Source: Escherichia coli (GTDB taxonomy: Bacteria > Pseudomonadota > Gammaproteobacteria > Enterobacterales > Enterobacteriaceae). Taken from it: DNA of 64,000 bases. A model generated the notes under the pieces. The model was not told where the DNA came from. It did not search any database and saw nothing but the letters and a program-made list of their open reading frames with translations. The stretch lies in assembly GCF_003790525.1 (NCBI RefSeq), contig NZ_CP033635.1. One strand, given 5' to 3'. Both the position numbers and the translations under genes were made by a program. Numbering within the stretch: the first letter of the stretch is position 1; each line of letters begins with the position of its first letter. Below, piece by piece: positions 47,957 to 49,236 of this stretch.

Positions 47957-48379
47957 TTATATCCCTGCCCTGGAGGACACAGTTTTACGACGTATCGAAT
48001 AATTTGTGCTCACATATCGATCCATCTCAAGGCGAACATCCAGCATCATCAACATACCATCAACCACTCCTTCAGCTTTTTGCAAACGCTTTCCAATATG
48101 CGTATCCGAACATCCATGTTTCCTTGCTAACTTCATGAACGTCATCCCATATACGTAGTAATCAACCAGCATGTCATGCATATCGGCGTTGTTCTTTTTC
48201 AGGCGAGCCATACAACCACATATAATCATCGCGTCATCATCGGAACACTGCGATCGCGATTTTACTTTTGACGGTATCAGCCCCTTAAATCCGGCGGCAA
48301 TGCCTGACCATTCCACGTCTTCATGATTATTTGCGACCCATGCCCCCCAACGTTCAAGAACCATCTGAATATCACGCAT
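47957..48379 (-). CDS. late-gene antiterminator Q (QuuD/phage 21-type)
   Basis: 140-aa [64 protein letters not shown]..., closely resembling DLP12 QuuD. Confidence 0.85.
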
Positions 48380-49236
48380 TATTCACACTCCCCAACCAGA
48401 TTGAGGATGACCTCTGCACCATTGTCTTTCATATATTCGCCCTTTCCGCTTGCCAAAAACCAACGACACACCTCCACGGCTTCAGCCCGTGTCACCGGTT
48501 TGATGGTCATCAGCAATTTTTCAAGGTAGCGCTCGCGGTCATATACCGATTCGTGATGCTCAGAGTAACCATACTCATCGCCCTGTTCTTTAGTTGCAGT
48601 GTGGCGAACACTGTAGAGCCAGTCCCAGTAAACAAACTCACGAACTACGTCTGACAATGTATGAGGCTCTGGCAGTACATCACGATAGCCATCAACATAT
48701 GCACGACGCTGATCATCAATTTCATTCATACGGATGCCGTCAATTCTGCCCGCTTTCTTCTCGGCTGCAGTCCAGCCCCAGAGATGATCGTCGATAAATT
48801 TCTGGGAAGACTTGATCACTCGCTCGGCTTCCACATCTTCGAGTGCTGCTTCATAGCTACCAAACGTAGCCCTGACTGATGCTGCTTTTTTGATATTCTC
48901 CCGGGCGATCCTGATTGCCTGTGCCGGGTTATCCATGCCGATGGTACCGAAAGCAATCTGGAAAGGATCGCCACCATTCGCCAGCAGATAACGCGAATAG
49001 CGTTCCTGGGCCTCTTTTGGGGATATTTTAATTTTCACCAGCGCGGCCTCAGCAGCATCCAGATGTGCGGGTTCGTTCAGACGGATAACCTCCAGTACCC
49101 AAAGATAAGCATCAGTCTGCTTATGCCCGGTGATTCTCCGTTGCTCTGGCAGGGGTTTGATGTTTGCGAGGGCGGAGCTGTACGCTGCCGTCGGGATGGT
49201 GAATAGTGCTTTATGTTCGTTGTTATCAGTACGCAT
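48379..49236 (-). CDS. hypothetical protein (between primase and Q), function unknown
   Basis: 285-aa ORF; its stop overlaps the Q start and its start abuts the primase stop, suggesting translational coupling; no domain recognised. Confidence 0.6.

Follow-up and report, generated by a model that had tools for sequence, protein, structure and literature searches.

A conserved early gene between primase and Q of an Escherichia coli prophage encodes a predicted all-alpha protein of an uncharacterised family

Gene X and its locus

The stretch analysed here, referred to as the window, comprises 64,000 nucleotides of Escherichia coli DNA (RefSeq assembly GCF_003790525.1, contig NZ_CP033635.1). It carries a prophage, and the subject of this report is one of its early genes, designated X, on the minus strand at 48379..49236. 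A preliminary description, which gave no strand, had placed an open reading frame (ORF) of 285 codons here, in the nin-region position between the primase gene and the antiterminator gene Q. Both the ORF and its position were confirmed, with a phrog_510 primase directly upstream and a phrog_79 Q gene directly downstream. The features of the locus are as follows.

48379..49236 (stop codon included), minus strand: gene X, 285-amino-acid (aa) protein of the phrog_6204 / 'Fels-1 prophage protein' family (ORF list, sequence, phrog_6204)
48841..49236, minus strand: N-terminal half of X, aa 1-132, conserved leader and first helical domain (alignment, AlphaFold, charge, variability)
48382..48834, minus strand: C-terminal half of X, aa 135-285, acidic helical domain (PHROG matches at 171-285 and 210-285; BLASTP)
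49234..49238, minus strand: TAATG junction of primase stop and X start, 1-base overlap (sequence)
48377..48381, minus strand: TAATG junction of X stop and Q start, 1-base overlap (sequence)
48388..48393, minus strand: GGGGAG, Shine-Dalgarno sequence for Q within the final X codons, 8 nt 5' of the Q ATG (sequence)
49236..50204, minus strand: upstream gene, 322-aa Zn-ribbon/toprim DNA primase of the P4-alpha N-terminal type (phrog_510, E 2e-129)
50206..51864, minus strand: 552-aa superfamily 2 (SF2) DEAD/DEAH helicase, first gene of the helicase-primase pair (phrog_16, E 1e-103; annotation by the Prokaryotic Genome Annotation Pipeline, PGAP)
47957..48379, minus strand: downstream gene, 140-aa Q-like antiterminator (phrog_79, E 9e-53; PGAP 'antiterminator Q family protein')

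Zn_Ribbon_Prim and Toprim_3 of Pfam were matched in an ortholog of the primase. As read from the sequence, the X start ATG (49236-49234) shares base 49236 with the primase TAA (49238-49236), and the X stop TAA (48381-48379) shares base 48379 with the Q ATG (48379-48377), in agreement with the overlap of X and Q described earlier. Besides its coupling to Q, X is coupled on its upstream side to the primase gene. The primase/X junction is identical in all 80 close relatives, defined as viral contigs with at least 85% identity, and overlaps of 1, 4, 10 or 13 nt between X and Q are found in most related loci. A scan of the coding strand from primase to Q revealed no promoter-like or terminator-like signal between the genes. 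No in-frame start lies upstream of the X ATG, which is itself the first start codon to follow a stop.

X is a genuine gene under purifying selection. In pairwise comparisons with the 80 relatives, the ratio of nonsynonymous to synonymous substitution (dN/dS) has a median of 0.114 and a range of 0.06-0.16. The product is 100% identical to WP_098717055.1 from a prophage beside yecE in E. coli TUM1886, and a search of 5426 complete E. coli genomes located related copies in 96; further copies occur in the isolated phages phi467 and vB_EcoS-611R1 and in Salmonella Fels-1 (STM0902). Operon STM0900-0903 of Fels-1 is listed with those that respond to a DNA-damaging mutagen in Salmonella (PMC2225428). 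At 90% identity clustering, 394 relatives are present in Escherichia, Salmonella, Enterobacter, Citrobacter, Leclercia and Atlantibacter; at 50% identity there are 137 representatives. A large remote branch at about 30% identity extends to Pseudomonas, Aeromonas and many betaproteobacteria.

A composition profile and a repeat search gave neither iterons nor an AT-rich stretch in or next to X; GC content is 0.44-0.56 along the whole gene, and the sole repeat is one weak inverted pair of 22 nt. With both hallmarks missing, an origin embedded in X, as in the lambda O-type arrangement, was rejected.

Synonymous diversity, calculated over 61-67 unique relatives, is minimal at the junction of the primase 3' end and the X 5' end (approximately 49130-49395). 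It amounts to 0.07-0.17 at the 5' end of X and 0.14-0.23 at the 3' end of the primase gene, compared to 0.2-0.33 in the remainder of X and 0.33-0.47 in the remainder of the primase gene. The central part of the helicase gene is equally low, so the dip does not prove that a cis-element is embedded here. Inside the stretch, CATGAGCA[T/C]ATT is found as a 12-nt direct repeat at 49290 and 49370; the stretch could be a mosaic joint, a cis-element or a result of population structure.

Family membership and predicted structure

Residues 1-285 of X align to profile positions 1-285 of 286 in phrog_6204 (E 8.9e-184), a family listed as 'unknown function', and the only PHROG matches are to three families, all with that label. 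STM0902 of Fels-1 shares 81% identity at the DNA level and 85% at the protein level with X, within the same helicase-primase-X-Q order. One of the closest known systems is the family itself, to which X belongs over its full length and for which no function has been assigned.

The Pfam search of the X protein returned zero matches even at E ≤ 10, and the same search with 58 family members revealed no known relative of the core. No NCBIfam family was matched, nor was any sequence in the Protein Data Bank (PDB), whether the single protein or a profile of the 58 sequences was used. The preliminary description had seen no resemblance to the lambda Nin proteins, and this stands: in Pfam, PHROGs and NCBIfam, X shows no homology to NinB (PF05772), NinG (PF05766), RusA (PF05866) or the matching PHROGs, and no homology to any lambda Nin, Rus or Rap protein is detectable. 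PADLOC gave no significant match, the best being PbeC with an E-value of 0.0025 over 46 residues. A literature search found no functional study of the family, the X protein is not mentioned in the 'Eru' paper on Shiga toxin (Stx) phages (PMC8951638), and the remote members are labelled hypothetical by every source that names them.

A structure prediction, proposed earlier as a check, was performed with AlphaFold2 and the 58-sequence alignment. The model is confident and all-alpha, with a predicted local distance difference test score (pLDDT) of 91.3 and a predicted template modelling score (pTM) of 0.85. It consists of an extended leader (aa 1-38), a first helical domain up to approximately aa 132 and a second helical domain at approximately aa 170-285. 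Foldseek against AFDB50 recovered members of the own uncharacterised family and nothing else, and a fold search of BFVD with the model gave nothing. No similarity was found to solved structures of the Orf, RusA or Rap type. X is a member of a catalogued yet uncharacterised family with a fold without known relatives.

The N-terminal half is basic, with an isoelectric point (pI) of 8.2-9.7, and is the most conserved region of X, with an amino acid variability of 0.01-0.03 across aa 1-60. Its leader carries the motifs N..H.ALF.IP and LP.Q..ITG...DAYLW. The C-terminal half carries P.TLSD...E..YW.WLY..R and I.P..R.EA, and the protein as a whole is mildly acidic (pI 5.6). In Klebsiella phages, the C-terminal half is abundant as a stand-alone short form of 158 aa (phrog_2887/19083), which occupies the identical helicase-primase-[X]-Q slot; one such protein (P0184) aligns to aa 135-285 of X by BLASTP with an E-value of 3e-24. 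The suggestion that this short form retains the N-terminal motif was withdrawn, the BLASTP match to the N-terminal part having an E-value of 1.7.

Positions conserved in the 58-sequence alignment include P30, W46, Y80, F125, G126, E138, P191, W204, R211 and E252, and no recognisable catalytic motif is present among them. Nuclease activity had been listed among the possible functions of genes in this region; nothing in the analysis points to a nuclease.

Proteins that bind the beta clamp use a pentapeptide, QL[SD]LF, in a disordered N- or C-terminal segment. The leader motif of the X family, H-[RK]-x-[LF]-F-x-[LI]-P, fits this consensus poorly: no Q is present, the second position is basic and the model shows an ordered segment (pLDDT 85-92). 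Clamp binding through the leader is a low-probability lead only.

N-terminal heads in relatives of X

WP_098717055.1 is named 'helix-turn-helix domain-containing protein' in RefSeq by PGAP. Many relatives of X indeed bear an N-terminal extension of about 45 aa; at a cut-off of E ≤ 0.1, Sigma70_r4_2 or HTH_23 is detected there in 12 of the 58 members. In the remote branch, a length of at least 290 aa, sufficient for a helix-turn-helix (HTH) extension, is reached by 104 of the top 120 proteins. Within the 285 aa of X, no HTH family of Pfam is found. X begins on the primase stop codon, precisely at the first conserved motif of the core, and is headless. As the HTH is confined to the extension of the relatives, the name has been transferred and does not describe X; for the headless form it is misleading.

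Alternative heads are rare: a Bro-N/antirepressor domain is present in one of the 58 representatives (P0154, E 1.6e-11), and ParB-like heads in two proteins (P0197 and P0221). No fusion of the Bro-N type was seen among the top 120 remote-branch proteins. The remote branch was further sampled with a degenerate DNA pattern for VTGDxExDAxLWL, which yielded 55 loci confirmed by hidden Markov model (HMM). Bro-N/KilAC antirepressor-type genes directly adjoin X in nine of these, and primase genes lie at most four genes from X in about 15.

These fusions and neighbours resemble the Bro network of domain-swapping phage regulators (PMC10111431). As in that network, the X core joins interchangeable N-terminal DNA-binding heads, and the family often adjoins Bro-N/KilAC, ORF6N and Rha genes. 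X could accordingly be a transcription regulator or antirepressor-type module, its core being the effector or oligomerisation domain of a new network member and its headless form an antirepressor or anti-activator that binds another regulator or RNA polymerase. In favour are the sigma-70-r4-type HTH joined to the core, which is the dominant architecture of the remote branch, the fusion in P0154 and the nine remote loci with adjoining, often overlapping Bro-N/KilAC genes. Two of these nine loci (L115 and L121) show a satellite-like AlpA-like/Bro/X/primase order. An Ant/Rha-type gene also lies upstream of P0142, and an ORF6N gene is found two genes from P0177.

However, X itself has neither a DNA-binding head nor any Bro-network domain. 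Its core matches none of the ten Pfam domains of the network (those considered include Bro-N, KilA-N, ANT, AntA, ORF6N, Phage_pRha, P22_AR, ORF11CD3 and Phage_ASH), and its fold does not match KilA-C/ANT or other regulator domains in AFDB50 and PDB. The usual head of the family is the sigma-70-r4-type HTH rather than Bro-N, a fusion with the latter being as rare as counted above. The two unrelated Q families described below also run contrary to a specific tie with Q. Taken together, a regulator is a possible but doubtful explanation.

Genomic context and the nin slot

Each of the 80 close relatives has X immediately behind the helicase-primase pair and the primase stop overlapping the X start; no insertion between primase and X was seen in the related loci surveyed. 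Downstream of X, a Q antiterminator is present in 78 of 88 loci and belongs to one of two unrelated families: the PF03589 type of 260-271 aa (64 loci) or the 140-aa type (14 loci). Four loci have an insertion behind X, either a RusA gene or a small ORF. When the X copies are compared by identity to the X protein of the window, they do not separate by Q type. Genes in this region had been described earlier as frequently exchanged; within this phage lineage that does not apply to X, and it is Q that is swapped instead.

A special tie of X to Q was rejected. Two unrelated Q families follow X, and in the Stx2a phage PA2 it is NinH that overlaps Q, so the X-Q overlap is generic and is a property of whichever gene precedes Q.

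PA2 also shows what can fill the slot when X is missing. It has a homologous helicase-primase pair (primase 57.5% identical) without X; NinB starts on the primase stop and is followed by NinG and then by NinH overlapping Q, at the same overlapping junctions, which supports the assignment of X to an accessory position of the nin region. X is missing as well from other Stx2a phages with homologous pairs, and in Pseudomonas PS-1 and Vibrio phage 1.233.B the homologous pair is followed by methylase, NinB, NinG or RusA. Conversely, neither NinB nor NinG was found in 82 X-bearing loci, in a search of limited sensitivity that used few reference sequences; with this same limited set, RusA was found in only two of the 82, downstream of X. 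X and RusA thus occur together in two loci, so X is not simply a substitute for RusA. The nin-region proteins share membership of the delayed-early operon with X, and NinB and NinG are in practice mutually exclusive with it. In contrast to NinB, NinG, NinH and RusA, with which it shares the slot, X has no sequence or fold similarity to any of them, and it is one all-alpha protein of 285 aa where NinB, NinG and NinH are three small proteins.

Since the helicase-primase pairs of PA2, PS-1 and the Vibrio phage function without it, X is no core component of the helicase-primase machinery but an accessory gene of the nin slot. An obligatory third subunit, such as an origin-binding initiator or helicase loader, would agree with the constant position of X after helicase and primase, through overlapping junctions, both in Klebsiella phages with the short form and in every one of the 80 close relatives. 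It would also fit the lowest synonymous diversity lying at the primase/X junction and the HTH of the relatives, as expected of an initiator. The X-less modules and the lack of origin-like repeats largely refute this idea. X itself is without HTH, and relatives also follow O-DnaB and O-P modules that already have an initiator and a loader, which leaves an obligatory subunit very improbable.

Phage initiators and replisome organisers include lambda O and P and DnaD-like organisers such as SPP1 G38P. The HTH and helical-domain architecture of the X relatives and their adjacency to helicase or primase genes are similar. In contrast to such proteins, X is dispensable for homologous helicase-primase modules, its family co-occurs with O-P, O-DnaB and DnaD-like initiators, no similarity of fold was found and no origin-like repeats lie in or beside it.

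Distant relatives of X follow replication genes of several other kinds: a DUF927 primase-helicase with a single-stranded DNA-binding protein (SSB), Rep_O with DnaB, lambda-P, a DnaB_C remnant, or a DnaD-like initiator. Some remote copies are located in operons reading into xis/int, with no replication gene near.

Six loci (L097, L101, L130, L141, L144 and L146) share the order LexA/CI-like repressor, LuxR-type HTH, phrog_32153, phrog_22608, X, phrog_4245 and integrase. The partners of X in this arrangement are all of unknown function, and these compact loci may be small integrative or satellite-like elements. In two close relatives (L020 and L030), the match to the primase extends over only 28% of the query and that to the helicase over 82%, which suggests a deletion fusing helicase and primase with X intact.

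Proposed function

Based on the above, X is proposed to be a non-enzymatic adaptor, accessory to phage DNA replication or recombination, with a probability of roughly one in three (about 0.35). A role of this type is favoured by the repeated position of X as the first gene after replication genes of six kinds and by its taking the place of NinB, NinG and NinH. The lack of recognisable recombination genes in this prophage and the response of the Fels-1 operon to a DNA-damaging mutagen also count in its favour.

According to this proposal, X would be a two-part, all-alpha early protein without enzymatic activity, produced from the rightward early operon together with helicase, primase and Q by way of the overlapping stop and start codons. 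Its core would serve a whole family of early phage proteins as effector module. In most relatives, this module would be tethered to DNA by interchangeable heads, usually of the sigma-70-region-4 HTH type and rarely Bro-N or ParB-like, while the E. coli/Fels-1 form would have lost its head and start at the first conserved motif of the core. Since this form is headless, it is proposed to act by protein-protein contacts rather than through a DNA-binding head of its own. In the first slot past the replication genes, which NinB, NinG and NinH occupy in sister phages, X may bind a partner common to its hosts and phage lineages, either a DNA structure or a host protein of replication, recombination or repair. 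It would thereby tune the activity of this partner at replicating phage DNA during lytic growth. We infer the adaptor role, the link to replication or recombination and the existence and identity of a partner; what the data show directly is a real gene under purifying selection, its place and coupling in the operon, its family with the fusions, the lack of any known domain or fold, and a helicase-primase pair that can do without it. In a stronger form of the proposal, the core would be a new fold and effector domain by which temperate phages of gamma- and betaproteobacteria, with the core on exchangeable heads or free as in X, capture one conserved host replication or recombination factor. X would then belong to a new class of replication/recombination accessory or host-takeover proteins replacing the NinB, NinG and Rus set functionally; this form is rather unlikely.

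The slot and the operon are also those in which a counter-defence or host-takeover protein might be expected. X would then neutralise a defence or exclusion system of the host or of a prophage, or inhibit a host nuclease, by analogy with lambda Ren in the equivalent first position after P. Lambdoid phages keep dispensable accessory genes in this slot, the operon structure indicates early expression, the lack of an enzymatic motif is consistent with an inhibitor acting by binding, and the family is widespread in gamma- and betaproteobacterial prophages. Such genes are, however, typically patchy and fast-evolving, while X is present in all 80 relatives, evolves at a dN/dS of about 0.11 and can be recognised in two classes of proteobacteria. 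Fusions to DNA-binding heads would be unusual for such inhibitors, PADLOC offered only the PbeC match, and a DNA mimic was rejected as the protein is insufficiently acidic at pI 5.6. Counter-defence is consequently a distinctly unlikely role for X.

Other features of the prophage

Throughout this prophage, no gene for Red, Erf, RecT, NinB, NinG or RusA could be recognised. In the helicase gene, the C-terminal ~60 codons (50206-50400) are hypervariable among close relatives, with an amino acid variability of 0.35-0.5 versus 0.01-0.07 elsewhere; this tail may be a specificity determinant. The helicase start is overlapped by 10 nt by a 206-aa NUMOD4/HNH endonuclease gene (51855-52475, minus strand; phrog_59, E 1e-40), at the place of which Fels-1 has an unrelated ORF of 122 aa. 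It has the appearance of a homing-endonuclease gene inserted into this operon of replication genes.

Positions 52476-52715 form the only sizeable non-coding gap of the early-right operon. This gap holds a 15-nt direct repeat, ACATCTGGACGTCTA / ACATATAGACGTCTA, with the copies separated by 170 bp; the palindrome TAGACGTCTA is part of the second copy and its variant TGGACGTCTA part of the first. A G/C hairpin, CCCCCTAAATGTTTATGGGGG, is present as well. The gap is a candidate regulatory, origin or homing site.

Downstream of Q, a 368-aa OmpC/Lc-type porin gene (46672-47778, plus strand), a lysogenic-conversion 'moron', is oriented against the direction from Q to the lysis genes. On the plus strand at 47922-47938, just past the Q stop at 47957, lies a strong hairpin with a T-run, probably the porin gene terminator. 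An IS5-type transposase of 326 aa (45396-46376, plus strand; insertion sequence (IS) at approximately 45300-46500) lies between the porin gene start and the tRNA/lysis region. This element is on the path of Q-dependent late transcription, and no transposase is annotated there in the otherwise identical TUM1886 prophage. Further downstream, tRNA-Arg(tct) and tRNA-Met(cat) are located at 44720-44873 (minus strand); Stx phages likewise carry tRNAs between Q and stx.

The left operon (53351-60810, plus strand) encodes a CI-like repressor (53351..54118), a CII-like regulator (54266..54694), a Bro-N/KilAC-type antirepressor (56534..57391), an integrase (59497..60810) and several unknown proteins. 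In the identical TUM1886 copy, the integrase adjoins yecE and a ParE-like toxin is annotated.

Significance

The X family is well represented among the prophages of E. coli, Salmonella (Fels-1), Klebsiella, Enterobacter and many betaproteobacteria, and X sits where the better-studied lambdoid and Shiga toxin phages carry recombination accessories. Many conserved phage proteins have no known function; X is among them but is unusually well delimited and widespread, and it is tractable, with Fels-1 and phi467 available as inducible or isolated phages. Should it be a regulator after all, the known set of domain-swapping early phage regulators would be extended. Should its core bind a host replication or recombination factor, this would explain how the lineage copes without recognisable recombination genes and would add a new fold to those of phages.

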